NCBI GenBank assembly: GCA_964561145.1
Contig: CAZLNZ010000006.1
Coordinates: 1-64,000 of the forward strand
Direction of reading: 5' to 3'
DNA length: 64,000 nt
Origin: an uncultured Christensenellaceae bacterium
Lineage (GTDB): Bacteria > Bacillota > Clostridia > Christensenellales > CAG-1252
Shown here: piece by piece, positions 1 to 15,777 of the stretch
How positions within the stretch are numbered: the first letter of the stretch is position 1
How the letters are laid out: the number at the start of each line of letters is the position of its first letter
Notes under the pieces: generated by a model
The model's input: the letters and a program-made list of their open reading frames with translations, nothing else
What the model was told of the DNA's origin: nothing
Database searches by the model: none
Made by a program: the position numbers and the translations under genes

Positions 1-3000
1 AAATCAATCTGCGGATATCAAAGCTCACTTTGAAGATTATAAAGGCGAACAAGTTGAGATGGATATCTCTTACTCTGCTGAATTTATTAATGCTGGCTCT
101 TACACCTTGACCGCTAGGTACGGAAATACTAACTATATTTATAACGACAATGAAAATAATGTAACAATAGCACAAAAGACATTGACAATAAGTGCGGACA
201 ACAAGAGTATTTATTATGGTGATAGCGTTACATTCTCCTATAATACTATCGGATTAATTGAGGGTGATAAGATAGGAACTATCGGCTATACTTGTAGTTA
301 TAGCGTAGGCTCTGATATAGGAAGCTATTCAGTTACTCCTTATGGTGCAGAAAACTCCAACTATATTATAGGTTACACCGATGGAATGCTTACAGTCACT
401 GCAAAGGTTGTTCGAATTGTTTGGGAAAGTGATGACTCGTATGTATATAGCGGAGCTTCTCAACTTGAGAGCGTAAAAGCTTACTATTTGGCATATACAA
501 ATGATAAAGTGTACGGTTCCTTAAGCTTATCCGGAGATTTCTCCGAGTTTAAGAATGCAGGTTCTTATACCTTTACAGTAACCTTTGCAAGCGATGCAAA
601 CTATAACGTACAAGGAGGTACAACAAAGTCTATAAATATAGCTAAAGCAACCTACAGCGGAATTACCCATGCAGGCTTCAAGGGAACCTATGATCCCCAA
701 GCAACCCTGAACGGTAACTATAGCTTTGGAGAGAATTCTCCATATAACTGGGTTAGTGGTTCAACAAAACCTGTAGTAAATACTAAGGAATATGCTGCAA
801 TCTACAATGCCGATCCTGTCAATTACGAAAACTTCCCATTGAACGTAAAGGTGGATTTGGAAAAAGCGACTTATTCTGATAGTGAGATTCCTAGCATCTA
901 CACCACGGAATTTGAGCTTGGAACATATGATCCTACGAATACACTGAAAAAATTATCAACCGATGGAAAAGTCACGTTGGCTAGCGGTTACTATTGGGTT
1001 GACGATAGTTTAGTACCTTCTGTAAGTACTGATGGTAAGAGCTATTCTGCTTACTATAATGCCGACTCTTACAACTACCATAATAAGGATGTCTCTGTCA
1101 TCATTAAAGTTTTGAGTAAGCTACAATTAAAAGAAGCCGATATACCTAATACTAGTATCACGCAAGACTTCGATCCCGAGAAGAAGGTCTCAGACTACCT
1201 TAATGATCTTCCTAATTCAGGTGCCGGTTTCAGCTTTGCAAGTACCGTAACAGATGCACAAAAGAATACTATCCTCAATGCTCGTGAGGCAGCTCATACC
1301 TTCGCTGTAATCTATAATCCTGATTCAACTAACTATGATGATTACACAACAGAAATAAGTATAACCATCAATAAGGCAAGCAGGAATGCAGAAGATCTCA
1401 AGAAAACCATTGACGGCGGCATATATGTTAAAGGAAATACCCTTGCAAATTACACTCTGCCCGAAGGATACACTTGGACTACTCCCTCAACCCCTGCTTC
1501 TCGTGATAGTACAGATGACAATGTGTACCCTGTCTTTACAGCAATTTGGAATGCGGGCTCGGAAACCTATCCTAACTATAACGAGTGTACCGGTGTCGAA
1601 ATCACCCTTAAACTTACCAAGGCGATTGTAACACTGGATGAAAAGGTATATGTTGATTGTAAGAATACGGATATTAATAAGAATGATAACAAAGATGTAA
1701 CCGTTGTACCGGAAGCATATTACAACGGATCGAAACTAGACGATTCACTATATGAACTAAGTTATCATAATACGACTAACGTATTTTCTCAAGGTGGAAC
1801 ATATTCTATGACGGTTTCCTTAAAATCTGAAAACTTCATGTTGGCAACGGAAGCGGTTACTGTATTAGCAAAAGTAAGAAGTGTTGCACTAAAATCTGAT
1901 ATAGACACTCTCTTGGAAATTGAAGATGCTTTATCCTTAACCACCAGCGATACAATAATAGTTATGTACAATACCATACTTAATAATAGTGCAACAGTAA
2001 ATAGTGGTGTAACTTTATTAGTACCTTATGGCGACCCCTCCGACGAAAATTTCGATTATACGCTAGGTGCAACAACTACAACGTCCGCAGGTATAGGCTC
2101 TTCGTATGTAACCCTTACTATTGGCGATGGAAAGAGACTTGATGTAAATGGAACAATAAATGTTTCCGGTTTACAGTACGGTGCATCAACCCAATATACC
2201 GGCTATACAACAGGAAATTATGGACAAGTTTCAATGGAAGATGGTTCTATTATCTATGTAAACAAAGGTGCTAATATATATTCATTTGGTTATGTAGTAG
2301 GAAGCGGTGATGTTGTATTACTTGATGGAGCGAATGGATATGAGCCATTAGATATTAAAGATTGGCCTGGTGGAAAAGCTTCATACCAAGCAAGAAACAC
2401 GTATTTTCCATTTAGTCAATTCCGCATAGCCAACATAGAAGTTTCTTTACGTATTTCCTATGGTGCAGCACTAAATGCACAATATCATATTTATGCTGAT
2501 GATACCAGTTTTGTAAATAGCATACAATTTGTAGGTAGCAGTGGCTTATTTGCGATTACTTCAGATGGAAGTTATATTGAAAAAAAATTGGATACGGCAA
2601 CAGGAAAAATCGATTTAACTTTATCAGGTTATGTGCAAACAAATAATATGACTGTCTCAGTGAAAGTTAAAATTGGTGTTAGCATGAACGTTGAAATGAG
2701 TACCTCAGGGAAGGAGATTCCTATTTGTGGTTATTACAATATTGTTGTTGCTAAAGGTGAAGTAACTGCAAATTCCAAGTTTAAATTGATGCCAGGTTCT
2801 TCTTTTATCATAAAAAAGGGTGCAAAGGTCACGGTTGCTGCTGATAGCAAAGCAGGAGTAATTGCCTATAACGGAAGTTCTCATCCTGATGTTTTCACGG
2901 GATTAAATAGTGATGGTAAAGGCACACGCGTTTATGGCGGTGATTTGACAAAAAAGAATATAAGGTCTGGCATTGTAAATAGTGTTGTTTATACCGCAGC

Positions 3001-3316
3001 ACAGCCTGCTATTTTTAAAGTCAATGGAGAGCTAGAAATGCTAGGTTATTCCGAGACAACCACTAACTGGCTTGGGAAACAAGAGACCACTACATATGGT
3101 GGGGTGCTTGGTGGCAATATAACCACAGAGTATGACTCGTCAAGGATTATAATAAACAAGCATGCCAGCACATCGGGTTCTTATATAATTAGTGTAAAAG
3201 CTGGTTCCTTGTTATCCTTAGATGATAAAACCACTTATGAATTCGCCGCCACCTCAGGAAGCACCACCCTTACTGCCGGTACGACCTACACCGGCAATGG
3301 TTCGACATTTGAATAA
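1..3316 (+). CDS. Large secreted/surface repeat protein, 5' partial. The frame is open from window position 2, so the first ATG at 59 is not the true start. N-terminal repeated Ig-like modules of MBG type (e.g. YSVTPYGAENSNYIIGYTDGMLTVTAK); C-terminal Gly/Thr/Ser-rich region suggestive of a beta-helix.
   Basis: 3.2-kb uninterrupted ORF with no stop upstream of 59 in the same frame. Internal repeats of the T-x-YDG/YTY type are visible in the translation. Stop codon at 3314-3316. Confidence 0.8.
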   Translation, partial: NQSADIKAHFEDYKGEQVEMDISYSAEFINAGSYTLTARYGNTNYIYNDNENNVTIAQKTLTISADNKSIYYGDSVTFSYNTIGLIEGDKIGTIGYTCSYSVGSDIGSYSVTPYGAENSNYIIGYTDGMLTVTAKVVRIVWESDDSYVYSGASQLESVKAYYLAYTNDKVYGSLSLSGDFSEFKNAGSYTFTVTFASDANYNVQGGTTKSINIAKATYSGITHAGFKGTYDPQATLNGNYSFGENSPYNWVSGSTKPVVNTKEYAAIYNADPVNYENFPLNVKVDLEKATYSDSEIPSIYTTEFELGTYDPTNTLKKLSTDGKVTLASGYYWVDDSLVPSVSTDGKSYSAYYNADSYNYHNKDVSVIIKVLSKLQLKEADIPNTSITQDFDPEKKVSDYLNDLPNSGAGFSFASTVTDAQKNTILNAREAAHTFAVIYNPDSTNYDDYTTEISITINKASRNAEDLKKTIDGGIYVKGNTLANYTLPEGYTWTTPSTPASRDSTDDNVYPVFTAIWNAGSETYPNYNECTGVEITLKLTKAIVTLDEKVYVDCKNTDINKNDNKDVTVVPEAYYNGSKLDDSLYELSYHNTTNVFSQGGTYSMTVSLKSENFMLATEAVTVLAKVRSVALKSDIDTLLEIEDALSLTTSDTIIVMYNTILNNSATVNSGVTLLVPYGDPSDENFDYTLGATTTTSAGIGSSYVTLTIGDGKRLDVNGTINVSGLQYGASTQYTGYTTGNYGQVSMEDGSIIYVNKGANIYSFGYVVGSGDVVLLDGANGYEPLDIKDWPGGKASYQARNTYFPFSQFRIANIEVSLRISYGAALNAQYHIYADDTSFVNSIQFVGSSGLFAITSDGSYIEKKLDTATGKIDLTLSGYVQTNNMTVSVKVKIGVSMNVEMSTSGKEIPICGYYNIVVAKGEVTANSKFKLMPGSSFIIKKGAKVTVAADSKAGVIAYNGSSHPDVFTGLNSDGKGTRVYGGDLTKKNIRSGIVNSVVYTAAQPAIFKVNGELEMLGYSETTTNWLGKQETTTYGGVLGGNITTEYDSSRIIINKHASTSGSYIISVKAGSLLSLDDKTTYEFAATSGSTTLTAGTTYTGNGSTFE
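886..1391. repeat. ~506-bp core identical to 12326..12831 in inverted orientation. This is the candidate homologous-recombination substrate shared by the expressed gene and the silent cassette.
   Basis: 168/168 identical amino acids (IPSIYTTEF...INKASRNA). DNA matches at both ends and at every interior position spot-checked. Identity stops abruptly on both sides. Confidence 0.85.
2580..2587 (+). repeat. Poly-A tract (A8) inside the coding sequence of the surface-protein gene, encoding E-K-K.
   Basis: gaaaaaaaattgg read directly from the sequence. Confidence 0.6.
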
Positions 3317-3357
3317 TAAACATCATAACAAAAACTTATACCGTTGCTCGCACTTAA

Positions 3358-3397
3358 GAACAACAATTAACTACTTTGTGTAAATTTACACTTTACA
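3358..3397. repeat. 3'-flank homology box shared (inverted) with 10497..10537. Contains the palindrome GTGTAAATTTACAC.
   Basis: The reverse complement of 10497-10537 matches gaacaacaattaactacttTgtgtaaatttacactttaca with one or two mismatches. Confidence 0.75.
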
Positions 3398-3422
3398 CCC
3401 CCCCTTTGCAATATACAAAAAT

Positions 3423-3455
3423 GCCGTTTGATTTCCACAACAGAAATCAAACGGC
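3423..3455. other. 12-bp stem hairpin (gccgtttgattt / aaatcaaacggc). The T-run lies on the minus-strand side only.
   Basis: Perfect inverted repeat with a 9-nt loop. No U-tract on the plus strand, so it is not a canonical terminator for the upstream gene. Confidence 0.4.
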
Positions 3456-3609
3456 TGTGAAATAAAAATATGAACTTAAACAAGGTTATTTCGCAATCTT
3501 GCCATTTATCGAAATAGCAGCGGCAGATTTTGTGCCATAATTCAACCATATTCGCTCTAAAAATGTGCAAAACGTTATTTTATTCGCTCAAAAAAAGTGT
3601 CGTTTGCTA

Positions 3610-3636
3610 TTGACTTTAGTTTGAATGTGGTATAAT
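3610..3636 (+). promoter_or_regulatory. Promoter-like element TTGACT-N15-TGgTATAAT, carrying the conserved GAATGTGGTATAATA module.
   Basis: -35 at 3610-3615 and extended -10 TGgTATAAT at 3628-3636. The same module recurs in the type-1 repeats. Confidence 0.4.
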
Positions 3637-3721
3637 ATTTTCACAAAGTTTTCAAATGACATTTAGACATGATTGCATTTTCTACTAAAAAAATGAAAAA
3701 TACTGTAAAGTTTATATGTAA

Positions 3722-3757
3722 ATGTCATACTGAGCGAAAGGAATGTGGTGTAATAGA
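3722..3757 (+). repeat. Type-1 short repeat ATGTCATACTGAGCG(A/G)AAGGAATGTGGT(A/G)TAATA, copy 1. It contains an extended -10-like TGgT(A/G)TAAT.
   Basis: Five copies in the window: 3722, 6131 and 6413 on the plus strand, 8611 on the minus strand, plus the module alone at 3623. Confidence 0.8.
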
Positions 3758-3843
3758 ATACAAAATAATTCAAATGATGAAGTGACATTCAAAAAAATTA
3801 GATAGTAAAAAAAAATCAGATTATTACTAAAGAACTGTATAAA

Positions 3844-3930
3844 ATGTCATACTGAGCGGAAGAAATTGGTAACAATTTCAGCAGTCGAACCCCATAGGGG
3901 CGAGGTGCAACCTCGGTATCTCATCCGCAT
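3844..3930 (+). repeat. Type-2 structured repeat, copy A. Layout: ATGTCATACTGAGCGGAAG, a variable hairpin, GTCGAA, hairpin CCCCAT(A/C)GGGG, hairpin CGAGGTGCAACCTCG, then GTATCTCATCCGCAT.
   Basis: Five copies with conserved flanks and a variable central segment. Copy D carries compensatory substitutions in both conserved hairpins. Confidence 0.8.
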
Positions 3931-4030
3931 TATTCCTAGACAAGGATTCAAATCACCATTGCTTTTGATTGAGGAATCACTTTCTCATACTAATAATCAT
4001 TAAAGAATACAGCATTGCATGTTTTAGTAT

Positions 4031-4085
4031 CCCCTATTATACCCCTTGACAAAAGGGTATAATAGGGGTATAATGGGTATAACGA
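4031..4085 (+). promoter_or_regulatory. Perfect consensus sigma70 promoter (TTGACA 4046-4051, 17-nt spacer, TATAAT 4069-4074) embedded in a 14-bp-arm palindrome (cccctattataccc / gggtataatagggg). It is followed by a second GGGTATAAC copy and drives the ATPase gene at 4100.
   Basis: Read directly: ccccTTGACAaaagggtataataggggTATAATgggtataacg. An AAGGAG ribosome-binding site sits at 4087-4092 and the ATG at 4100. An inverted variant lies at 10336-10392. Confidence 0.7.
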
Positions 4086-4099
4086 AAAGGAGATGTAAT

Positions 4100-5911
4100 A
4101 TGGACACTATGAATATACAAAATCGAATTACAGAACTTGAAGCACGTATTGAAACTTTACCCAAAGGTTCTATAGCTAAAAAGAGTATAAACGGTAAAAC
4201 ATATTACTATCATCGATACAACGAAAGCGGAAAGAGAGTCGAAAAGTATATTGATCATGATTCAGTGGAAACTCTTCGTAATCAAATTGATGAGCGAAAG
4301 CTTTTGGAGGCAAGATTGAAGGAGTTGAAGAAAAAAATCGATGTACCACTGAGGAAAACGCAAAAGAAAGAAGTGTTTACCTTTAATTCATCGATTCTTA
4401 TAGGTGATAAACTGAAAAGATTTGTTGCCGAAGTGAAGGCTTATAAAAAGAGGGAATGTTTCTCACAGCTTCATAATTTTATATACAACGATGTCAAGGA
4501 TAGAGTATTTATTCTATATGGTTTGCGTCGTACCGGGAAAACTACAATGATTCGTCAGGCACTTGCCGATATGACCGAAAAGGAAATAGCTAAATCTGCA
4601 TTTATTCAAGTTTCACCTAAAGATACGCTCGGGGGTGTTAACAAAGATTTGATGCTTTTGGAACAAGGTGGCTATAAGTATATTTTCATTGACGAGGTCA
4701 CCTTTATGGCTGACTTCATCGAGGGTGCGGCACTTTTCTCTGATGTATTTGCTACATGTGGTATGAAAATCGTTCTTTCAGGAACCGACTCTCTGGGCTT
4801 TATGCTATCTAAAAGCGAGCAGCTCTATGATAGGTGTATTCTCCTTCATACAACCTTTATCCCCTACAGAGAGTTTGAAAAAGTACTCGGTATAAAAGGG
4901 ATAGACGAATTTATTCGCTATGGTGGCACCATGAGCCTTGGCGGTATCAATTACAATGAAGGTTTTTCATTCAGTAATACGAATACAGTAAACGCATATG
5001 TTGACAGTGCAATTGCAAAAAACATCCAACACTCCTTAAAGTATTATCAGGATGGCAGTCATTTTCGCAATCTAGCAGATCTTTACGAAAAAAACGAGCT
5101 AACCAATGCTATCAATCGTGTGGTAGAAGACATTAACCATCGCTTTACAAAAGAAGTAATTACTCGTGAGTTTAAATCAGGTGATTTGTCACGTTCGGCA
5201 AGAAATTTACGCAGAGATCGCTTTGCACCAAATACAATCCTTGACGATATCGATATTAAAGCCGTAACCGAAGAGCTCAAGAGTCTTCTTGAAATCCTTG
5301 ACGAAGAGGATCAAATGGTTAAGGTGGACGACATCCACGCTGCAGAGATTAAAGAATATCTTATTCTTCTTGATCTGATTTACGAAATTGACGTGCGAAG
5401 TTTCCCGAATGTGAATGACATCAAAAAGAACATAGTTGTATCACAGCCCGGAATGAGATATGCACAGGCAAAGGCACTTGTTGAAAGCTTACTCCTCGAT
5501 GAAAAAATTAATGGGCTGAGCTTGCATGAACGTATGCAAGTAATCGAGAGGCTTTTAAGCGAGATTAAGGGCAGAATGATGGAGGACATCGTCCTACTTG
5601 AAACCAAGTTAGCAAAGCCTCAAAAAGATGTCTTTAAACTTCAATTTGCCATTGGAGAGTTCGATATGGTAGTGTTTGATCCGGAAAAATTATCCTGTGA
5701 AATATTCGAGATAAAATATAGTACCCAGATAGTAGATCAACAATATCGACACCTTATTGATGAGCAGAAATGTGCACAAACCGAACACCGTTTCGGTACA
5801 ATTAAGAATAAATACGTTATCTACCGTGGATTAACCGAGATTGTTAACGGTATACATTATATAAATGTTGAAGAATACCTGAACAATTTGTGTAACGATA
5901 ATTCCCTATAA
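4100..5911 (+). CDS. AAA+ ATPase of the AAA_14/DUF4143 family (COG1373-like). It has an N-terminal ~100-aa extension with a coiled coil and a possible AP2/arm-type DNA-binding motif.
   Basis: Walker A motif GLRRTGKTT; DUF4143-like C-terminus (FEIKYSTQIVDQQYRHLIDEQ). The start is placed at 4100 rather than the ORF-track 4046 because the RBS and promoter lie within 4046-4099. Confidence 0.7.
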   Translation: MDTMNIQNRITELEARIETLPKGSIAKKSINGKTYYYHRYNESGKRVEKYIDHDSVETLRNQIDERKLLEARLKELKKKIDVPLRKTQKKEVFTFNSSILIGDKLKRFVAEVKAYKKRECFSQLHNFIYNDVKDRVFILYGLRRTGKTTMIRQALADMTEKEIAKSAFIQVSPKDTLGGVNKDLMLLEQGGYKYIFIDEVTFMADFIEGAALFSDVFATCGMKIVLSGTDSLGFMLSKSEQLYDRCILLHTTFIPYREFEKVLGIKGIDEFIRYGGTMSLGGINYNEGFSFSNTNTVNAYVDSAIAKNIQHSLKYYQDGSHFRNLADLYEKNELTNAINRVVEDINHRFTKEVITREFKSGDLSRSARNLRRDRFAPNTILDDIDIKAVTEELKSLLEILDEEDQMVKVDDIHAAEIKEYLILLDLIYEIDVRSFPNVNDIKKNIVVSQPGMRYAQAKALVESLLLDEKINGLSLHERMQVIERLLSEIKGRMMEDIVLLETKLAKPQKDVFKLQFAIGEFDMVVFDPEKLSCEIFEIKYSTQIVDQQYRHLIDEQKCAQTEHRFGTIKNKYVIYRGLTEIVNGIHYINVEEYLNNLCNDNSL

Positions 5912-5940
5912 CACGCATCTATAAAATCCATACATCGTAG

Positions 5941-5971
5941 GGCGGGGACTTGACTCCCGCCGAATCTTTTT
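5941..5971 (+). terminator. Rho-independent terminator after ATPase 1: GC stem gcggggA...Tcccgc followed by a T-run.
   Basis: ggcggggacttgactcccgccgaatcttttt. Confidence 0.55.
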
Positions 5972-6130
5972 ACACTACGGTGTTCCACACGCCTGCTATC
6001 CCTCAATCTCTAGGCTACGCCTTTCGACAGCCCCTTTTTCACAAGCAATGTGTTGGCTTAAGAAAACCTGTATAAACACAAGCAAAAGTGGTATTAAAAG
6101 GATATCGATTTACAGCAAAATCACATCTCA

Positions 6131-6165
6131 ATGTCATACTAAGCGGAAGGAATGTGGTATAATAA
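6131..6165 (+). repeat. Type-1 repeat, copy 2.
   Basis: atgtcatactaagcggaaggaatgtggtataataa. Confidence 0.8.
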
Positions 6166-6248
6166 ATTAAAAAAGTAAATGCCAAAGTACACTATAGAAT
6201 GCAAAAATCCTTCTAGAAAATCGAAAAGTATCGCAAAAGTATACATTA

Positions 6249-6410
6249 ATGTCATACTGAGCGGAAGGTGAAGCCTGGAGTCGAACCCCATCGGGGCGAG
6301 GTACAATCTCGGTATCTCATCCGCATTCACTCGCATTGCTTTACACAAGGCAGCCTTTTCCTATGGTGTGTTAATACAAAATTCTAAAATAATTGCCGGC
6401 AAATTATCTA
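6249..6410 (+). repeat. Type-2 repeat, copy B (6249-6326), plus a conserved 3' extension (tcactcgcattgctttacacaaggcagccttttcctatggtgtgttaatacaaaat..). The extension is shared with copy C.
   Basis: The extension at 6327-6400 is near-identical to 6621-6690. Confidence 0.8.
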
Positions 6411-6412
6411 AA

Positions 6413-6447
6413 ATGTCATACTGAGCTAAAGGAATGTGGTACAATAA
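6413..6447 (+). repeat. Type-1 repeat, copy 3.
   Basis: atgtcatactgagctaaaggaatgtggtacaataa. Confidence 0.75.
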
Positions 6448-6542
6448 TTTCAAAAAGAACTAAAATCACAAAAAACATGCAGAGAAATTGAAACGCTATA
6501 ATATAGTGCGAATATTGGCAATAATACCAGTAATCCATATAA

Positions 6543-6700
6543 ATGTCATACTGAGCGGAAAGCGAAGCTTGTAGTCGAACCCCATCGGGACGAGGTGCAA
6601 CCTCGGTATCTCATCCGCATTCACTCGCATTGCTTTACACAAGGCAGCCTTTTCCTATGGTGTATTAATGCAAAATCTTAAAATAATTATCAGTAAATTG
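6543..6700 (+). repeat. Type-2 repeat, copy C (6543-6620), plus the shared 3' extension. Together with 8449-8527 (minus strand) it forms a perfect ~80-bp inverted repeat with an identical variable segment (AGCGAAGCTTGTA).
   Basis: The reverse complement of 8449-8527 aligns base-for-base with 6543-6620 apart from about two mismatches. Confidence 0.85.
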
Positions 6701-6706
6701 TTTAAG

Positions 6707-6790
6707 ATGTCATACTGAGCGAAGGCGTAGCCGTAGTCGAACTCCGCAGGAGCGACACTCGGTGTCGGTATCTCATCCTTGTTAATCGGC
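6707..6790 (+). repeat. Type-2 repeat, copy D, divergent. Hairpin 2 changes from cccc-atc-gggg to ctcc-gca-ggag. Hairpin 3 changes from cgagg-tgcaa-cctcg to cgaca-ctcgg-tgtcg. Both changes are compensatory.
   Basis: Base pairing is preserved while the primary sequence changes on both strands of each stem. Confidence 0.75.
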
Positions 6791-6910
6791 ATCTCAATCC
6801 TTATAAAAAGGTCGCAGTGACATAAAAATGTACTGTATCATAAATTTAAATCCAAAATTAAGCCCTCCCTATGTTACTCTTGCAAAAATGTTTTGCTGTT
6901 TTACACAACA

Positions 6911-6993
6911 ATATTGAAAAGTCAACAAAATTAACCTTAAAAACTATTGAAAAGTCAATGAATATGTGTTAAAATAATATTGAAAAGTCAATG
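6911..6993 (+). repeat. Three direct repeats of (A)TATTGAAAAGTCAA(T/C), starting near 6911, 6944 and 6975, immediately upstream of and overlapping the start region of ATPase 2.
   Basis: Spacing of ~33 bp, which is about three helical turns. Confidence 0.7.
6947..6975 (+). promoter_or_regulatory. Promoter TTGAAA-N17-TGtTAAAAT for ATPase 2, overlapping the middle direct repeat.
   Basis: -35 at 6947-6952; extended -10 at 6967-6975; GGAGG at 6994-6998; ATG at 7003. Confidence 0.5.
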
Positions 6994-7002
6994 GAGGTGT
7001 CT

Positions 7003-8319
7003 ATGCTTTACAGAAAAATTGAAAAAGTTATTACTTCTCATCTAAAATCCGGCACTAACAAAATATTAATTGTAGATGGTGCAAGACAGGTTGGTAAGTC
7101 TTATATAATTAGATATATTGGAAAAAAGCTTTTTAAAAACTATGTTGAGATAAATCTCTTAGAGGATTCTTTAGGTAGGAAAGCCTTTGAAAATGTTAGA
7201 ACTGTTAAAGACTTTTACTTTCGTGTAAGTATGTTCGCAGGCAATAATATGGGTTCTAAGGAAGATACCATCATTTTTCTCGATGAAATACAAGTATACC
7301 CCCATTTGCTCACATTACTAAAATTTTTAAGGGAAGATGACAAGTATAACTATATCGCAAGCGGGTCTTTATTGGGCGTTACTCTTGCAAAAACCTCATC
7401 TATTCCTATGGGTAGTATTTCCGTGGTTCAAATGTACCCTTTGGATTTCGAAGAGTTTTTATATGCCAATGGCTTTAATGAATTTGCAATTACCTCAATG
7501 AAAGAGCATTTTCAAAATATGCAAAGCCTTGAACCGACTGTACATGACTCTATACTTGATTTGTTTAAGAAATATCTGTTAATTGGCGGACTGCCCGATG
7601 CCGTTAACACCTATTTAACCGGTTTTAATATAGTCGCTGTAAGGGAAATTCAAAAAGAAATCCACGAGTTTTATAGTGCTGATGCCTCTAAATACGATAC
7701 GGAAAACAAATTAAAAATACGTCGTATTTATGATATGATACCATCGACTTTGGAGAACAAAAAAAAGAGAGTGGTAATTAAGGATATCGAAAATATAAAA
7801 GGAAAAACCTATTCTCACTATCAGGATGAGTTTGACTATTTGATTTACTCGGGAATTGCATTAGACGTAAAAGCAATCTCAACGCCCACTTTTCCGTTAA
7901 TAGAGTCAAGCGAAAAAAACTTGCTTAAGCTTTATCTTAACGATGTCGGAATACTTACAAGCATTCTTTATAATAATAACATTCTTGCGGTTCTGGATAA
8001 CGAAAAGAGTGTTAATCTTGGCACGGTTTATGAAAGCGTTGTTGCAAGCGAATTGAAGGCACATGGTAAGAGTTTGTTTTATTATGACAATCGCAGTAAC
8101 GGAGAGGTGGATTTTTTAATAGATGATTACGATAATCTATCGGCACTGCCAATTGAGGTAAAGTCAGGCAAGGACTATACGATTCACAGCGCCCTAAATA
8201 GATTTGTAACCAATAGTGATTATAATGTAAAAAAAGGGTATGTTTTATCAAATGAAAGGGAAGTATTTACTAACGGAAAAATAACATATCTTCCTATTTA
8301 CTATGTAATGTTCCTTTAA
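7003..8319 (+). CDS. AAA+ ATPase of the AAA_14/DUF4143 family, paralogous to the gene at 4100..5911.
   Basis: Walker A motif GARQVGKSY; C-terminal DUF4143 motif (PIEVKSGKDYTIHSALNRF). The start is placed at 7003 (GGAGG RBS) rather than the ORF-track 6991. Confidence 0.7.
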   Translation: MLYRKIEKVITSHLKSGTNKILIVDGARQVGKSYIIRYIGKKLFKNYVEINLLEDSLGRKAFENVRTVKDFYFRVSMFAGNNMGSKEDTIIFLDEIQVYPHLLTLLKFLREDDKYNYIASGSLLGVTLAKTSSIPMGSISVVQMYPLDFEEFLYANGFNEFAITSMKEHFQNMQSLEPTVHDSILDLFKKYLLIGGLPDAVNTYLTGFNIVAVREIQKEIHEFYSADASKYDTENKLKIRRIYDMIPSTLENKKKRVVIKDIENIKGKTYSHYQDEFDYLIYSGIALDVKAISTPTFPLIESSEKNLLKLYLNDVGILTSILYNNNILAVLDNEKSVNLGTVYESVVASELKAHGKSLFYYDNRSNGEVDFLIDDYDNLSALPIEVKSGKDYTIHSALNRFVTNSDYNVKKGYVLSNEREVFTNGKITYLPIYYVMFL

Positions 8320-8448
8320 CTAAAATCCAACTTTATCTTCTCATTTTCAACCGAACGAATGAAATCCTCATAAATTTAGCAGCCAATTTCTTGAAGCGAG
8401 GCAAAATCCTAAAGAATGGCTCGAGTGCCGTAAAGAAAATTGCCTTTT

Positions 8449-8527
8449 ATGCGGATGAGATACCGAGGTTGCACCTCGCCCCGATGGGGTTCGACTACAA
8501 GCTTCGCTTTCCGCTCAGTATGACTTA
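8449..8527 (-). repeat. Type-2 repeat, copy E, in inverted orientation. It is the right-hand partner of copy C flanking ATPase 2.
   Basis: See the 6543 entry. Confidence 0.85.
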
Positions 8528-8610
8528 ATGTATAACTTTGTTATATTATCGATTTTTTAGAAGTATTCCTGTATTTTAGAGTGCTATTTTATCATTTACT
8601 TTTTCAATAT

Positions 8611-8644
8611 TATTATACCACATTCTTCCGCTCAGTATGACATT
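8611..8644 (-). repeat. Type-1 repeat, copy 4, in inverted orientation.
   Basis: The reverse complement reads atgtcatactgagcggaagaatgtggtataata. Confidence 0.75.
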
Positions 8645-8821
8645 TAGACAGTATTTTGCTTTATAGTTAAAATCTTATATCACTATTATTACTCGCACCT
8701 ATACATGTTTTCTTTATCCCTTGCATTGCATCTCACGACTGATGCCCTTGTCTTCGGCTAACAGTTCCTACTGCCAGCCTGTAGCGGACTTTCACCGCCA
8801 AGTTATTACGCGTGCCGAGTA

Positions 8822-8869
8822 CACAAGAAAAACCGCCGTTGGTTTTACTCAAAAGCGGTCAAATTTTAT
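8822..8869 (-). terminator. Rho-independent terminator for the minus-strand AlbA_2 gene.
   Basis: On the minus strand: accgcttttgagtaaaaccaacggcggt followed by tttttcttg. Confidence 0.5.
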
Positions 8870-8876
8870 ATGTTTA

Positions 8877-10211
8877 TTATTCTTGTATCTTCCAATGTCC
8901 ACCTTTAGCTGGGCCGACATGAATTATCACTTGACTTTTCTTTAATGCCCTACTAATAGTTGGCACAGATTTTCCTGTTTTCTCTGACATTTTAGCCTTT
9001 GAGATGTATGGGTTTTCTTTAATAAGATTGATTAGCATTTTTTCTGTATCATTTTCTGTATCATTTTCTGTATCACTTTTCCCAAGTAAACGTTCTTGTT
9101 TGCTTCTGTTTAATATGTTATAGGGCAGAATACATTGTATAAATGACGAGCCAAAATGATAGGCATCTTTACCATATTTCGACACTATAGTAGGCACACC
9201 TTTTCCTGATTGTTCCATATAGTGTAATTGCATGAAAATTTTTGCAAATTCTTCATTGACAGGTTTACTGATTCCATTAAAGAATTCTTCTTTTGTCATC
9301 CCTTCAGTTAAAAGTCCGTATGAGATAATTTCTAATCTATCATCAAAACCATATATTGCCGGAGGTGTTTGTTCTACCCATAAATTATGACATACTGCAT
9401 TAAACCAAGCCTCACGGAAGGACTCATTATCAAAATACGGCGTATCGACTCTATTCTTTCCAATAATATTTGTTTGAATTATATTGAGCACATTTAATGC
9501 ATAATCCAATGCATCTTCCATTTGCTTAAAAATACATCCTCTTTCAAATTCTTTTCGTGATAAAAATTCTGCTTTGGTTGTGCCATTAAACCGAACTACT
9601 TTTATTGATGTATCATTCTGATCTGATACCAGAAATGCGATATAGTTATATTTGCCTTCATTATTTCTCAAATTATAGTTTTGTTCAAACGTTGCACCAT
9701 TAAAATGTATACCTTTAAATGCAAGTATCGCTTGAAATTGAGCAAACGATAAATCTTGACGAGGGCTTAATTTTTGTTTCATTGATTGCTTAGGAATGGA
9801 CAGTTGTGCAATATATCTTTGTTCGATTTCCTCTTCAGTCATACTACGGCAGGTCGTACCAATACGGACATAACAGCCACTTGCACTACGACCATATTTC
9901 TTTATATAGAAAAGGCCATCACCCTTGCGGACCTTTATTTCAACAACATTTTTGCCTTCAACAAACTTTGTGCCGAGCTCAATATATTTTTGTGAATTCG
10001 GTAAAATTTGCGTAGTAATTATATCTGCGATTTTCTTTTGCGTTTCATCAAGATTGTTAATACCAACAACACTTCCGTCATCTTCCACGCCGATGTAAAT
10101 AACACCGTCAAAGCTATTAAGAAATGCCACGATTTCTTTTGAAAGAGAGTCGTTCATTATTCTTTTTAATTCTACCTTTTCGGTTTCTTGGAATATCATA
10201 AAAGCACCCAC
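8877..10211 (-). CDS. Schlafen-like AlbA_2 (divergent AAA_4) domain protein. It has a RecG-C-terminal-like ATPase-fold region and a C-terminal HTH, and is typically annotated as a putative DNA-binding protein or transcriptional regulator.
   Basis: N-terminal motif ELKRIMNDSLSKEIVAFLNSFDGVIYIGVEDDGSVVGI; C-terminal HTH-like region VPTISRALKKSQVI. Confidence 0.65.
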   Translation of the reverse strand: MGAFMIFQETEKVELKRIMNDSLSKEIVAFLNSFDGVIYIGVEDDGSVVGINNLDETQKKIADIITTQILPNSQKYIELGTKFVEGKNVVEIKVRKGDGLFYIKKYGRSASGCYVRIGTTCRSMTEEEIEQRYIAQLSIPKQSMKQKLSPRQDLSFAQFQAILAFKGIHFNGATFEQNYNLRNNEGKYNYIAFLVSDQNDTSIKVVRFNGTTKAEFLSRKEFERGCIFKQMEDALDYALNVLNIIQTNIIGKNRVDTPYFDNESFREAWFNAVCHNLWVEQTPPAIYGFDDRLEIISYGLLTEGMTKEEFFNGISKPVNEEFAKIFMQLHYMEQSGKGVPTIVSKYGKDAYHFGSSFIQCILPYNILNRSKQERLLGKSDTENDTENDTEKMLINLIKENPYISKAKMSEKTGKSVPTISRALKKSQVIIHVGPAKGGHWKIQE

Positions 10212-10335
10212 TTCACTTTAAGTTATTTTAATTATAACAAAAAAAATGGAAAAATTCAACACTTACCCGATAACAATTGACTATTTTTCCTTGAATCTAT
10301 TCACTAATGATTGTATTAATCTTTTGCGATGTTTT

Positions 10336-10392
10336 TGCTATACCCCTATTATACCCATTATACCCCTTTGTCAAGGGGTATAATGGGTATAA
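10336..10392 (-). promoter_or_regulatory. Inverted variant of the palindrome-embedded promoter element. A 13-bp-arm palindrome (cccattatacccc / ggggtataatggg) carries TTGACA in its loop on the minus strand, followed by TATAAT at a 15-nt spacing and further GGGTATAAT copies. It points toward the AlbA_2 gene.
   Basis: Minus strand reads ccccTTGACAaaggggtataatgggTATAATagggg. Same building blocks as 4031-4085. Confidence 0.6.
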
Positions 10393-10469
10393 TCAATGAG
10401 GTAACCAACTGCGGACGTTTTTTTGCTATGGGGTTTGTTTATGGTGAGGTAAAGTTTATTACAGAAAAT

Positions 10470-10497
10470 AGCGAGACTTTTGTCGGTCTCGCTATCC
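10470..10497. other. 10-bp perfect hairpin (atagcgagac / gtctcgctat) adjacent to the flank homology box.
   Basis: Perfect inverted repeat read directly from the sequence. Confidence 0.4.
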
Positions 10498-10537
10498 TGT
10501 AAAGTGTAAATTTACACGAAGTAGTTAATTGTTGTTC
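10497..10537. repeat. Inverted copy of the 3'-flank homology box at 3358..3397.
   Basis: See the 3358 entry. Confidence 0.75.
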
Positions 10538-10548
10538 ACAGAGTCAAA

Positions 10549-12831
10549 GACAAATGTGGTTCCGTTACCTTTATAGTTACTACCTTTGGCTAAAGTTGTA
10601 CTTCCGGAAGTGGCGGTGTAGGTATGGTTGGTGTCTGTTTCTGAAAAGGATATTCCACTGCTCAACAATTTTGCCATTTACCGTGGTATTGACATGGATT
10701 TTAATATATGGACCCTTTTTAGTTGTTATAGTACCACCTAAAACTCCTTTTCTTTCGGTTTTAAGGGTATCATCAACAATAAAATTAACGGACTTTTTAG
10801 CATAACCACCATCATATGTAGCATATGTACCCGTAATTGGTGTTGGTTGAGCAAAATCATCACCCGTTTTAAGTGCTATATACTATTCCAGCATATTCGC
10901 TATTTGCAATAGTCACTGCAGCACCCTCTTCAATGGTTAGAGATGCACCAGACATAATCTTTAGTTTCGAATTAACGGTTACATTTCCTTCAGCAACAAT
11001 AATATTATAATATTCACAAATTGGGATTTCAACACCTTTAGACGTGACCGTATAAATACTTATTTTTAGTGTTATATTATTTGTTGTAATATTTCCGTGA
11101 GATTCAATTTTGATTTTCCCATTATTATCAACACTCTTAATAATGTAACCATCTTCGATTGTAAATAATCCACCAGCTCCCATAAAAGTAACAGAATCAT
11201 TCGCCTCAAACCCGGTTCCTGTAATATAGTAATGTGCATATAAGGAAGCTCCGCTATTAATGCTTAAAACTGTTTCTATATTTGCTACACGGAATTGGCT
11301 AAATGGGAATGATTTAAATGTTTTTGGACCAACTAAATTCCATACATCATTAACAAGTTTTAGGGCGGCGGTACCGCCGGGCCAGTCTTCAATATCAAGA
11401 AGTTCATATACTTCCGCACCGGCATATGCAATTACAGTACCAGTTCCTTTTATATAGCCAAATGAATATAATTCACCATGAACATATATATAAGAATTAG
11501 TTTCCATGCTTATTTGCCCATAATCCCCGGAGGTATATCCGGAATGGGGTTGTCCAGAAGATTGTATGCCGGAAACATTTAATATCCCAGATTTGGATAC
11601 TGTTAATGATTTATCGTTGGCAATTGTGAGAGTTCTATGTGCTGAACCTGTTGAAACACCATTCTTAGCAGTGTTTATAGTGCTTATATAGGAGTAATTA
11701 TTGCTATATGGCACTAACAAAGTTACACCACTCTTTACTGTTGCACTATTATTAAGTATGGTATTGTACATAACGACTATTGTACCGCTAGTTGTTGAAG
11801 ATAAGGCGTCCTCGATTTCTAAAAGGGTTTTAGTGTCGGTACTTAATGCAACACTTCTAACCTTGACAGTAACAGTAACCGCTTCCGTTGCCAACATGAA
11901 GTTGTCAGATTTTAAGGAAACCGTCATAGAATATGTTCCACCTTGAGAGAAGAGGTTCGTAGTATTGCCATAACTCAAGGTATAAGATGAGGTATCTTCA
12001 ATAACTGAACCGTTGTAATAAACATTAGGAATAGCCTTAATCTGATCGCCGGTATAATCAACGTAAACAAGAGAATCAATCGTTACAACCGCCTTGGAAA
12101 TCTTAAGAGTTATCTCAACACCGGTACACTCGTTATAGTTACTATCATATTCAGAACCCTTATTCCAAATTGCTGTAAAGACAGGGTACTCGTCGTCCTT
12201 TATACTAGTACGAGAAGCAGTAAGAGAGGAGTCTGTCCAAGTGTATCCTTCGGGCAGAGTGTAATTTGCAAGGGTATTGCCGCGAACATATTCGCCTGCG
12301 TTCTCAATGGTGTACTTAAGGTCGCCTGCATTCCTGCTTGCCTTATTGATGGTTATACTTATTTCTGTTGTGTAATCATCATAGTTAGTTGAATCAGGAT
12401 TATAGATTACAGCGAAGGTATGAGCTGCCTCACGAGCATTGAGGATAGTATTCTTTTGTGCATCTGTTACGGTACTTGCAAAGCTGAAACCGGCACCTGA
12501 ATTAGGAAGATCATTAAGGTAGTCTGAGACCTTCTTCTCGGGATCGAAGTCTTGCGTGATACTAGTATTAGGTATATCGGCTTCTTTTAATTGTAGCTTA
12601 CTCAAAACTTTAATGATGACAGAGACATCCTTATTATGGTAGTTGTAAGAGTCGGCATTATAGTAAGCAGAATAGCTCTTACCATCAGTACTTACAGAAG
12701 GTACTAAACTATCGTCAACCCAATAGTAACCGCTAGCCAACGTGACTTTTCCATCGGTTGATAATTTTTTCAGTGTATTCGTAGGATCATATGTTCCAAG
12801 CTCAAATTCCGTGGTGTAGATGCTAGGAATC
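10549..12831 (-). pseudogene. Silent, 5'-truncated and 3'-frameshifted inverted paralog (cassette) of the surface-protein gene. Homology to 886..3357 of the expressed gene.
   Basis: No ATG: the ORF track begins at an internal TTG (12740), and an in-frame TAG lies eight codons upstream of where the homology starts. It is identical to the expressed gene over 12326-12831 and divergent (~65% aa) thereafter. After the TAA at 10869-10871, homology to the last ~150 aa of the expressed gene (GVLGG-ITT.., ATSGSTTL.., YKGNGTTF) continues in other reading frames down to 10549. Confidence 0.75.
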
Positions 12832-13041
12832 TTAGCATAATCTTTCTAGAACCACCTTTATGTTCGATATTTTCGTAAGGCGGAGGCAAGGCTTACACTG
12901 CTATATTATGCAATATTTGTACGCAAAGAAGTTGTAATGTGGATATTTATTTGACGGGACGGCATCAAAGATGCCTGCAATCCTTCAGTCAATTCGCTAT
13001 GCTCCTTGATAGTGCCTTTTATATCGGGCAGCTTTGTTTTA

Positions 13042-13319: not shown

Positions 13320-14519
13320 TCAATTAGCGGCTTTTAAGTTATATACGGGGTATATTCTACGCTCTATATCAACTGTATCCGCTATGTTTGCAATGAGGGT
13401 GTTTACGCTCTTATATGCATCGGGGCTTTCATCAAGCGTCCCTTTGCAAATGGAAGTGGAGTAGATGCCCTTCATTTGCTGCTCATACGTATCCATGGAT
13501 AAGGTTTGGAACGCCTTCGAGCGGCTCATAAGTCGTCCGGCTCCATGAGGAGCACTTTGGTTCCAGTCCTTATTTCCAAGTCCGATACATATCAAAGCAC
13601 CGTCACGCATATTGATGGGTATCAATAACCTTTCACCCAAACGAGCTGAAACAGCACCTTTACGTAATATATTATAGTCGATATCGATGTAATTGTGAAC
13701 CGTTGTAAAGGTATTTTTTATATTAATTTTCATTATTTTTTCTATTTCAGCCATCATTGCTTGTCTATTTAGCTCCGCGAAATGCTGTACGATTTTCATA
13801 TCGTGAATATAGTCCTCAAAATCTTTTCCTTCAACATACGCTAGTTCTTTTGGAATGTCGCATTTTTGCTTTTCAAGATCTCGGAGTTTCTTTTCTATCT
13901 GCTTTTCGTGTCCTTTTCTTTTTAGTGAATCGATAAGTGTATTAATTTGCTCCTGTTTCTTATCGGAAAAACGTCTATATGCAAGCTTTTGATAGTAGGA
14001 GGCGACCTCTACACCTAGGTGACGGCTTCCGGAGTGAATAACAACATAAAGATTTCCTTCATCATCCTTATCTACCTCTATAAAGTGATTTCCGCTACCT
14101 AGTGTACCTATGCTAAGCATGGCTCGATTATGGTCTATACTTTTATAGCAACGGAGCTCGGTAAGATCGATTTTTTCCGAATACGGGTGTGGCATTTTTC
14201 GTATACTATTACCTGTTGGAATGTTTTGACGTATGCCTTTGTCGAGATCGGGGAAAGAAAGCTCCTTTTCTTCGATTTGAGCAACCTCCATTCCACAACC
14301 GATATCTACGCCCACCATATTGGGAATCACTTTATCCGTTATTGTCATAGTCGTTCCTATCGTACAACCCGCACCCATGTGGACGTCGGGCATAATGCGT
14401 ATTTTACTTTTTTCGAATGGCTTGAAATCGCATAATGTTTTAATTTGTTCTATTGCACCCTGTTCTATTATGTCGGTATAAATCTTCGCACTGTTATGCT
14501 TACCTTTTATCGTCATCAT
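13320..14519 (-). CDS. rtcB: RNA ligase RtcB (release-factor-H-independent short form, ~399 aa).
   Basis: Motifs MPDVHMGAGCTIG, GSGNHFIE and APHGAGR. AAGGAGG RBS 8 nt upstream. Confidence 0.85.
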   Translation of the reverse strand: MMTIKGKHNSAKIYTDIIEQGAIEQIKTLCDFKPFEKSKIRIMPDVHMGAGCTIGTTMTITDKVIPNMVGVDIGCGMEVAQIEEKELSFPDLDKGIRQNIPTGNSIRKMPHPYSEKIDLTELRCYKSIDHNRAMLSIGTLGSGNHFIEVDKDDEGNLYVVIHSGSRHLGVEVASYYQKLAYRRFSDKKQEQINTLIDSLKRKGHEKQIEKKLRDLEKQKCDIPKELAYVEGKDFEDYIHDMKIVQHFAELNRQAMMAEIEKIMKINIKNTFTTVHNYIDIDYNILRKGAVSARLGERLLIPINMRDGALICIGLGNKDWNQSAPHGAGRLMSRSKAFQTLSMDTYEQQMKGIYSTSICKGTLDESPDAYKSVNTLIANIADTVDIERRIYPVYNLKAAN

Positions 14520-14760
14520 GTCTGATACCTCCTTCGTTTTATATTAATATTATATCAGTCTTTTTCGACTTTTAGTAGTACGCAGTTATTAATAAAAAAG
14601 TGCCCCCTTGTTTTTGCACCAAATGTGGCTTTGTTATAAGAAAAAATGATATAAATCGTGTCTTTACGTTTTATTGAATGGGGAATCTGTGTTTTTTAAT
14701 AAGGATATCACTTTACTTACGCCCCCTTTTTGTGGTACATTATATTCATAGGAGGTGGTT

Positions 14761-15777
14761 ATGACCTACGATAAAATCAAGATATACGTTACACCAAGGG
14801 TGGGCGACATACTTTCAAACGATGCCGACAGCTTTGAATTCTATAAGTCGGACGGTGTTACTCCAAATAAAAATGGATTGTTAACTAGACTTATAGTTAA
14901 CTATTCTCAAGAGTTTAACGAAAGACAGGAAAGGTTATATGATAGGATTAATTGTGAATTGAGAAAAGTGTTTATCGATGAACAAACCAGGGATAATCTT
15001 TGTAATGAAATTGCCAACAAGGTTAACAAAGAGCTTTCGTCGGATTCTACGGAAAAGTTTAATCGCTTGATTTCTCTAAAACCCACAAAAGAAACAGCAC
15101 CTTTGATAGAATATGCAGAGAATTATTTGTTGAAGGGTGCATCTTTGTCAGAGTATTATCGTAATATGTTTACGGCATATGCGAGCTTTACGCAAGATAA
15201 ACGTGAGGAGATTATTTTTAAAGAAAATTATGACTTGCTATCGAAGGCTATCAACGAGGGTAAAAAGGTCTTTATTACCACACGTGCTAAGGCTCGTTTT
15301 TACGAGCTTTCACCCTATGCTTTTGCTCGTTCAAAGGAGGAAATGCATGTGTATTTATTGACAGAAAACAGAAATCGCTGTCGCACTATAAGATTATCAA
15401 GAATAGAATCCGTTGTTATTCTTAAAAAGGCGGCGACTTTTACGGAAAAAGCGGTAGCAACCTTTAAAAAGATGCAAGAATACGGACCGCAATTTTATTA
15501 TCTTGCAAATGAAGAAGAAATTGTTATTAAACTGACAAAAGAAGGGGTTAATAGATATCGTAAAATATATGTACACAGACCTATCCCTAAACGCATCGAA
15601 GGTGATCTTTATTATTTCGATTGTTCTGCCAATCAAGTTGTAGAGTACTTTAAAAGGTTTGGTGATGAGGCATATGTGGTTTCTCCGCCCGGTGTTCGTG
15701 AGTCTATATTAAGCTTTCATTATCGTGCCGTAAAAGCATATAGAGGGAAGAGCAACTCTTCTCCGAATAATAAGTAG
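14761..15777 (+). CDS. WYL-domain protein with a WCX-like C-terminus and an N-terminal region of unknown function. It is divergent from rtcB.
   Basis: WYL core MHVYLLTENRNRCRTIRLSRIESVVIL. The C-terminus (GDEAYVVSPPGVRESI) resembles the WCX extension. AGGAGG RBS 5 nt before the ATG at 14761. Confidence 0.55.
   Translation: MTYDKIKIYVTPRVGDILSNDADSFEFYKSDGVTPNKNGLLTRLIVNYSQEFNERQERLYDRINCELRKVFIDEQTRDNLCNEIANKVNKELSSDSTEKFNRLISLKPTKETAPLIEYAENYLLKGASLSEYYRNMFTAYASFTQDKREEIIFKENYDLLSKAINEGKKVFITTRAKARFYELSPYAFARSKEEMHVYLLTENRNRCRTIRLSRIESVVILKKAATFTEKAVATFKKMQEYGPQFYYLANEEEIVIKLTKEGVNRYRKIYVHRPIPKRIEGDLYYFDCSANQVVEYFKRFGDEAYVVSPPGVRESILSFHYRAVKAYRGKSNSSPNNK

Follow-up and report, generated by a model that had tools for sequence, protein, structure and literature searches.

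Autoregulated promoters can carry dyad operators that lie over their -35 and -10 hexamers, as exemplified by LexA boxes and by the operators of toxin-antitoxin operons. Another arrangement is that of DnaA boxes and iterons, where an AAA+ or initiator protein binds an array of 9-mers and also represses its own promoter. Promoters may also be controlled by hairpins, and these include engineered supercoil-dependent palindromic promoters, the hairpin promoters of the phage N4 virion polymerase and Frpo of conjugative plasmids. Here we describe a dyad element that shares features with each of these groups, located in a 64,000-nt stretch of contig CAZLNZ010000006.1 from an uncultured Christensenellaceae bacterium (assembly GCA_964561145.1; this whole stretch of 64 kb is referred to below as the window). 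One copy, E1, stands upstream of the gene for an ATPase with an AAA_14 domain, ATPase-1, and a second copy, E2, lies on the opposite strand upstream of a Schlafen-like AlbA_2 gene. E1 is composed of direct copies of the 9-mer GGGTATAAT and of its inverse, ATTATACCC, in the following arrangement:

4031-4084, forward strand: E1, a hairpin-forming consensus promoter dyad upstream of ATPase-1
4026-4034: degenerate second inverted copy, GTATCCCC, directly 5' of ATTATACCC
4031-4044, forward strand: left arm, CCCCTATTATACCC, 14 nt, perfectly complementary to the right arm
4036-4044, forward strand: inverted 9-mer ATTATACCC, inside the left arm
4045-4054, forward strand: loop, CTTGACAAAA, which houses TTGACA
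4046-4051, forward strand: -35 hexamer TTGACA, within the dyad loop and part of a 12/12 consensus match
4052-4068, forward strand: promoter spacer, 17 nt
4055-4068, forward strand: right arm, GGGTATAATAGGGG, 14 nt
4055-4063, forward strand: proximal direct 9-mer GGGTATAAT of the right arm, inside the 17-nt spacer
4066-4074, forward strand: second direct 9-mer, whose TATAAT (4069-4074) is the -10 hexamer
4075-4083, forward strand: third direct 9-mer, GGGTATAAC, over the expected transcription start
4089-4092, forward strand: ribosome-binding site GGAG of ATPase-1, with the start ATG at 4100
4100-5911, forward strand: ATPase-1 coding sequence, 603 residues, with an N-terminal domain, an AAA_14 ATPase domain and a C-terminal PD-(D/E)xK-like region

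E1 has the parts that define a sigma-70/sigma-A promoter, namely a -35-like hexamer, a spacer of 17 +/- 1 nt, a TATAAT and a short distance to the ribosome-binding site and start codon, the ATG lying 25 nt past the -10 hexamer. It provides the sole 12/12 consensus match in a promoter scan of positions 3300-10900. E1 is very probably a genuine sigma-A (sigma-70-type) promoter native to the ATPase-1 gene, with a predicted transcription start. An earlier, sequence-only reading of this DNA had described a palindrome with TTGACA in its loop, a 17-nt spacer and a TATAAT at this site, and inspection of the sequence bears it out. Folded as single-stranded DNA and compared with shuffled sequences, E1 reaches a z-score of -3.6, and the two strands of E2 reach -8.2 and -7.7. 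Rfam at gathering thresholds over the whole window, Rfam in E-value mode over 3300-10900 and ARAGORN returned no RNA family or transfer RNA (tRNA); the sub-threshold hairpin look-alikes that Rfam places on E1 and E2 (microRNA precursors and PK-repZ) are judged spurious.

The association of the element with one gene family is best seen among the homologues of ATPase-1, which form at least 8000 clusters, the named ones belonging to Lachnospiraceae, Acetatifactor and Dysosmobacter; the relatives come from Lachnospiraceae, Oscillospiraceae and other gut Clostridia. A lookup of exact protein matches gave nothing beyond a 2.4-kb contig that is identical to the window. In a gene-first sample of 80 metagenome loci with 61-81% identity to ATPase-1, which comprise 65 distinct upstream regions, the element is present in 62 regions. 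All share one design, in which one or two inverted ATTATACCC copies are followed by a -35-like hexamer and by one to three GGGTATAAT copies; whichever of these lies 17 nt past the -35 serves as the -10. The full geometry of a -35-like hexamer, a 17-nt spacer and a TATAAT ending 34 nt before the ATG is kept in 54 of the 65 regions, which supports the earlier description of E1 as a consensus promoter set in a hairpin-forming dyad ahead of ATPase-1. In the dominant human-gut clade the element reads [A/G]TTATACCC-c-ATTATACCC-TTGATTTCGA-GGGTATAAT-g-GGGTATAAT, followed by a leader of 34 nt up to the ATG. In alignment A2, the -35 hexamer begins with an invariant TT and with a G and A kept in at least 90%; the other loop positions drift and the arms are conserved. 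The third direct copy of E1 is found likewise in L002, L005 and L015.

The element and its gene occur in unrelated contexts, including beside an N6 methylase gene (L002), between rpmF and plsX (L005 and L015) and on a plasmid of Agathobacter rectalis. Between loci with unrelated flanks, homology begins at -76 to -89, which is the left edge of the dyad. It stops shortly past the stop codon, except in about 20 loci, where it extends past an adjoining large serine recombinase gene. Solo ATPase cassettes carry a single element on their 5' side and none at their 3' end. Since homology sets in at the left edge of the palindrome across unrelated contexts, the gene carries the element along as its promoter. 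To judge from these comparisons, ATPase-1 is a single-gene, promoter-plus-gene cassette that spreads horizontally among gut Clostridia.

Some of these loci are worth recording in their own right. L005:5771-8064 and L015 hold a complete promoter-gene-terminator ATPase-1 cassette inside the rpmF-plsX housekeeping cluster, with no recombinase nearby. At L136:5150-6892 and some 20 further metagenome loci, ATPase-1 homologues of the main gut clade adjoin large serine recombinase genes, as does the AlbA_2 homologue at L197:5622-9347; these homologues probably represent edge cargo of integrated elements.

The reverse search, starting from the motif, was made in one genome per species with the pattern ATTATACCC-N6-14-GGGTATAAT-N0-2-GGGTATAAY and returned 82 loci, nearly all from gut Clostridia. 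An ATPase-1 homologue lies directly downstream in 57 of the approximately 74 assessable loci, the rest being orphans. Among these, L047 and L102 stand 156 and 311 nt from AlbA_2-type genes, others stand beside unrelated genes, and two orphans grouped as class (a), L055 and L078, are entirely self-complementary and have no loop. These numbers bear on the possibility that the element is simply the generic strong-promoter signature of the organism, or a chance similarity. Doubled GGGTATAAT does appear in a few unrelated viral contigs, even inside coding sequence. The window, however, holds seven exact copies of GGGTATAAT where 0.69 are expected (seven were reached in 0 of 100 shuffles), all of them inside E1 or E2, and no copies elsewhere despite its housekeeping-type genes; allowing one mismatch brought out no further cluster. 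Together with the tight two-way association with one gene family, this makes a generic or chance origin scarcely credible. The motif thus belongs to a single gene family, apart from a minority of copies that stand free, and is no general signature of promoters. The sequence-only reading had named occurrence upstream of unrelated housekeeping genes as the outcome that would overturn it, which is not what the motif-first loci look like; the check that it proposed, a search for the block to see whether it defines the terminal repeat of a mobile element, is what the motif-first scan supplies.

Several orphans share a distinctive setting. In at least six species (the L055, L078, L080, L092, L109, L034 and L087 loci) the orphan dyad precedes a conserved second promoter of conventional type. 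In five of these species a non-coding stretch of about 250 nt comes next, with a tRNA-like T-arm and a ...CGACCA end, and is followed by a terminator (L055:459-709, L078:973-1223, L080:7150-7399, and on the reverse strand L092:7016-7264 and L109:97-345). Extra partial copies of its 3' end, resembling attachment sites, are sometimes found behind it. Neither ARAGORN nor Rfam recognises the stretch, and the covariation support for its predicted fold is weak.

As regards the function of the dyad, the explanation that we prefer, with moderate confidence, is that a dyad or iteron operator would overlap the sigma-A promoter in E1. The promoter is built from one repeated block, GGGTATAAT, made up of a G-run and a -10 hexamer. 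One or two inverted copies stand directly 5' of the -35, one direct copy fills the 17-nt spacer, the next provides the -10 and, in the clade of E1, a third lies over the expected start. The repeats around the -35 and -10 hexamers, direct and inverted and 10-11 bp apart, would then serve as operator or iteron sites; with these occupied by a protein, RNA polymerase would be shut out and a potentially harmful nuclease gene kept under tight control. The most economical binder would be the ATPase itself, acting through its N-terminal domain in an autoregulatory manner, since a gene that crosses bacterial families most simply brings its own regulator. The N-terminal domain may bind DNA, and its sequence motif differs between clades with different repeats, being GS[IV]..K..Y[YF]YHR in GGGTATAAT clades versus GYI..K..RYYHQW in GGTTA-type clades.

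The behaviour of the repeats speaks for an operator. Repeated and inverted sites overlap the core promoter and are conserved together with the gene, and within each arm one 9-mer is repeated in tandem every 10-11 bp. In homologues at 45-50% identity the architecture is kept and the repeat is altered in all copies together, reading ATTATAACC/GGTTATAAT in L207, ATAACCT/AGGTTATAAT in L203, TTATCTCC/GGGGATAA in L205 and (A/G)TTATAACCC/GGGTTATAAT in the Agathobacter rectalis plasmid. The L199 and L213 clades have two left copies and one right copy, so that the left copies cannot all be stem partners, which fits repeated binding sites and not a hairpin alone. A pure hairpin model also leaves unexplained the tandem repetition within arms at one helical turn.

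In these respects E1 resembles LexA boxes and toxin-antitoxin operators, in which inverted repeats flank or overlap the core promoter of a harmful gene and half-sites change together between lineages. It differs from them in that the half-sites of E1-type elements are copies of the -10 block, up to five in number, both tandem and inverted and 10-11 bp apart, and in that the arms evolve in a compensatory, pairing-like way; the binder, too, is a putative one here. With DnaA boxes and iterons it shares 9-mer arrays at helical-turn spacing in the promoter of an AAA+ gene that has a putative nucleic-acid-binding domain. The differences are an unrelated sequence, no indicated replication role, an ATPase of the AAA_14 type instead of DnaA or Rep, and binding that is likewise putative.

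Several points weigh against this explanation. The spacer base between the 9-mers covaries across the arms (C-G 37, T-A 11, mixed 8), T-A turns up on scattered branches of the coding-sequence tree together with T-G and C-A intermediates, and L207 mirrors even its deviant -10 hexamer (TATACT/AGTATA). Such spacer covariation and mirroring are needed by intrastrand pairing and not by a symmetric protein. Furthermore, the correlation between N-terminal motif and repeat type, in which few clades are involved, could simply reflect phylogeny, some orphan copies have no ATPase-1 gene within 8 kb, and in every clade all copies are -10-like, so that RNA polymerase with its sigma factor could be the only binder.

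The covariation speaks for pairing. Pair 24/54 is CG in 37 cases and UA in 11, pair 26/51 is UA in 57 and CG in 2, and two-sided changes are found in 14 cells, where shuffles give 4.6 +/- 1.6; in L125 and L170 both partners of another pair have changed. The caveat is that template-switch correction of a quasi-palindrome yields the same compensatory pattern. Either the stem-loop is functional, or hairpin-templated repair corrects the quasi-palindrome time and again. An operator could accommodate both, with the mirrored arm changes arising from such correction or from an additional requirement for extrusion of a stem-loop. As the dyad symmetry is maintained by compensatory changes, the hairpin role suggested in the sequence-only reading does not seem far-fetched.

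One rival explanation is a structural switch, in which a cruciform or hairpin would loop out the -35 and take up the -10 into a stem; activity would then follow supercoiling or a single-stranded DNA stage, and no dedicated repressor would be needed. Perfect arms of 14-21 nt, the 4-nt loop of E2 and the folding z-scores agree with such a switch, as do the recurrent compensatory change from C-G to T-A at the spacer pair with its wobble and mismatch intermediates, the mirrored idiosyncratic changes of L125, L170 and L207, and the loopless orphans. Against it, most family members have loops of 10-20 nt, which makes extrusion less favourable. In many sequences the distal left copy is degenerate, eight ATTATGCCC variants are uncompensated, and neither the partnerless left copies of L199 and L213 nor the tandem 9-mers of each arm are accounted for; quasi-palindrome template switching can moreover produce mirrored changes without any function. 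We regard a switch that dispenses with a repressor as unlikely. A more far-reaching version, in which the dyad would be a structural sensor switched by stem-loop or cruciform formation (through supercoiling, or through single-stranded DNA in infection, conjugation or repair), or in which the ATPase-nuclease would itself recognise hairpin DNA and the promoter would mimic its target, is unlikely. Like cruciform promoters, the N4 promoters and Frpo, E1 has promoter elements within an inverted repeat able to form a stem-loop. In N4 and Frpo, however, a special polymerase or a single-stranded entry stage is used and the hairpin creates the promoter, whereas the duplex of E1 already is a consensus sigma-A promoter that a hairpin would disrupt, and most loops of the family are long.

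The -10-like character of every repeat raises a further possibility, that RNA polymerase holoenzyme is the sole binder and that the cluster of -10-like sites with G-rich flanks forms a bidirectional or self-competing promoter (through occlusion or sigma-dependent pausing). A TATAAT-like core is indeed present in every repeat and every clade, a -10-like copy covers the expected transcription start of E1, and inspection of alignment A2 reveals TCGAAA-17-TATAAT on the bottom strand of the main clade; in L068, open reading frames start on both sides of the dyad, at distances of 23 and 28 nt. The candidate bottom-strand -10, namely the distal left copy, is nevertheless the least conserved part of the element, no divergent gene is conserved, the left flanks are unrelated between loci, and the 612-residue reading frame of L068 looks like a spurious high-GC antisense frame. 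This possibility is considered quite unlikely, and the operator overlapping a sigma-A promoter remains the preferred explanation.

The second copy of the element, E2, and the gene that follows it comprise these features:

10337-10393, reverse strand: E2, an orphan copy of the dyad, with perfect 21-nt arms (10348-10368 and 10373-10393) and a 4-nt loop
10374-10369, reverse strand: TTGACA, as the -35, followed by a 15-nt spacer
10353-10348, reverse strand: TATAAT
10347-10337, reverse strand: third copy, AGGGGTATAGC
10231-10259, reverse strand: proximal promoter of the AlbA_2 gene, TTGAAT, 17 nt and a TG-extended TATAAT (TGnTATAAT)
8877-10199, reverse strand: AlbA_2/HATPase_c_4/HTH_24 gene, starting probably at ATG 10199 (440 residues, as in the closest relative) and not at GTG 10211

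Read on the minus strand, E2 has the order ATTATACCC ATTATACCCC TTGACA AAGGGGTATAAT GGGTATAAT AGGGGTATAGC, and it is 82% complementary to E1 over 56 nt, the two being mutually inverted. The view that E2 is a shuffled variant of E1 on the opposite strand holds as far as the identity of the element is concerned, but its spacer measures 15 nt between TTGACA and TATAAT, or 14 nt on the plus strand with TTGTCA, and not 17. E2 thus has neither the 17 +/- 1 nt spacer nor the dependent gene of a sigma-70/sigma-A promoter. Its proposed role as driver of the Schlafen-like AlbA_2 gene is rejected on three grounds: this 15-nt spacer, the gene's own promoter, with E2 more than 140 nt upstream of the ATG, and its homologues. 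Four homologous loci were read (91, 77, 74 and 71% identity); none has a GGGTATAAT dyad upstream and each has its own extended -10 promoter of the TGnTATAAT type. E2 resembles the promoter of an ATPase-1 homologue of 81% identity (L113; TTGACAAAGGGGTATAAT..GGGTATAATAGGTATAGCGAAG...), less 2 nt of spacer, the ribosome-binding site and the gene. It is a second, symmetrised orphan copy of the element with no ATPase-1-type gene behind it, and is either left over from the turnover of cassettes or an additional operator that sits 5' of the promoter belonging to the AlbA_2 gene. Past the AlbA_2 terminator, at 8720-8840 on the reverse strand, lies a GC-richer, structured-looking stretch (…GGCGGTGAAAGTCCGCTACAGGCTGGCAGTAGGAACTGTTAGCCGAAGACAAGGGCATCAGTCGTGAGATGC…) with no Rfam match.

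E1 and E2 had also been taken for the two ends of a cargo region of about 6.4 kb and for a possible recombinase site, and in this reading they would be terminal inverted repeats or recombinase sites of a mobile or invertible 6.3-kb segment. They stand in opposite orientation on either side of three defence-like genes, cassette homology begins exactly at the dyad, and many homologues adjoin a large serine recombinase gene. Nonetheless, two elements are found in only 1 of 167 element-bearing loci, namely the window itself; solo cassettes lack a 3' element, there is no visible target-site duplication, the open reading frames checked to about 31 kb of the window include neither a recombinase nor a transposase, and the distance from element to ATG is fixed, as for a promoter. 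Terminal repeats or recombinase sites are therefore very improbable, and a transposable element or miniature inverted-repeat transposable element (MITE) bounded by E1 and E2 is rejected on the count of loci, the missing transposase and the missing 3' element. The single locus with two elements, taken with the AlbA_2 data, leaves E2 as an orphan and the pairing of E1 with E2 as a local coincidence of cassette content.

At the protein level, ATPase-1 may be compared with the candidate defence system PDC-S01, a single-gene system that combines AAA_14 with DUF4143. In rumen genomes this system is reported to be the commonest single candidate defence locus (PMC13356809), and DUF4143/COG1373 is counted among the PD-(D/E)XK families of unknown function (PMC3424549). 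ATPase-1 shares with PDC-S01 the AAA_14 domain and a C-terminal PD-(D/E)xK-like region, and differs from it in having an extra N-terminal domain and no Pfam match to DUF4143. Its match to the PADLOC PDC-S01 model is weak and confined to the ATPase domain (E = 3e-10), which places it outside PDC-S01, whereas the neighbouring ATPase-2 matches over its full length (E = 3e-175). Within the alpha/beta C-terminal region, D522 ... E537-x-K539 is invariant in the alignment of ATPase-1 homologues, and weak Foldseek matches of this region are to PD-(D/E)xK nucleases. The N-terminal portion of about 80 residues is strongly conserved and predicted to fold as alpha-beta-beta-beta-alpha (predicted local distance difference test, pLDDT, 82.8); a weak match to DUF6788 is all that Pfam at a lenient threshold gives for the N-terminus. 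ATPase-1 is a candidate defence gene and a distant relative of PDC-S01. The literature yielded no paper on DUF6788 or on the repeat strings, and no prior description of the cis-element was found.

The gene is followed by two further features:

5941-5961, forward strand: terminator-like hairpin and T-run after ATPase-1
6991-8319, forward strand: ATPase-2, an AAA_14 and DUF4143 protein

Immediately 5' of ATPase-2, at 6907-6991, AAyAATATTGAAAAGTCAA is repeated three times in direct orientation with a 33-nt spacing, the last copy touching the ATG, and may by analogy be a repeat-type control region comparable to E1 with another motif. A non-coding repeat unit (ATGTCATACTGAGCGGAAG ... AGTCGAACCCCATCGGGGCGAGGTGCAACCTCGGTATCTCATCCGC) is found around ATPase-1 and ATPase-2 at 3840-3940, 6238-6335, 6532-6629 and 6694-6792 on the forward strand and at 8447-8545 on the reverse strand. 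It folds into a closing stem with two hairpins, with compensatory changes in a divergent copy, and several copies come after a promoter-like box, TGGTATAAT. Promoter-like pieces related to it lie at 3623-3661, 3720-3775, 6129-6184, 6411-6470 and 8600-8650. The unit has no Rfam or tRNA match and is absent from all other fetched loci and viral contigs.

The three defence-like genes, ATPase-1, ATPase-2 and AlbA_2, lie between two inverted paralogues of an MBG_2 surface protein (885-2032 versus 11703-12832, and 59-3316 versus 10869-12836). These share 529 bp at 99% identity, the remainder being about 80% identical in DNA and 65% in protein, and copy B is without the first 274 and the last 150 residues of copy A. 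The pair looks like an expressed gene with a silent partial copy, whose 3' parts could be exchanged by inversion or gene conversion, as in antigenic variation. A 40-nt inverted repeat, 97.5% identical and containing the palindrome GTGTAAATTTACAC, is located at 3358-3397, just downstream of surface-protein gene A, and at 10498-10537, about 330 nt downstream of gene B. Beside the island, an RtcB RNA ligase gene (13320-14519, reverse strand) is divergent from a WYL-domain gene (14755-15777, forward strand).

For the very abundant and uncharacterised gene family of gut Clostridia to which ATPase-1 belongs, these results define a cis-regulatory element whose dyad is the boundary of a promoter-plus-gene cassette. 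Such cassettes, and their orphan remnants, can be located by searching for repeats of the GGGTATAAT type around a -35 hexamer. Pairing-like compensatory evolution in a DNA promoter is uncommon and testable. If the ATPase does bind its own promoter, the element would offer a simple handle on the regulation of single-gene candidate defence genes of the AAA_14 type. If instead the dyad is a structural sensor, or the protein recognises hairpin DNA, the cassettes would constitute a natural family of cruciform-controlled defence-gene promoters across gut Clostridia, supported by recurrent compensatory evolution.

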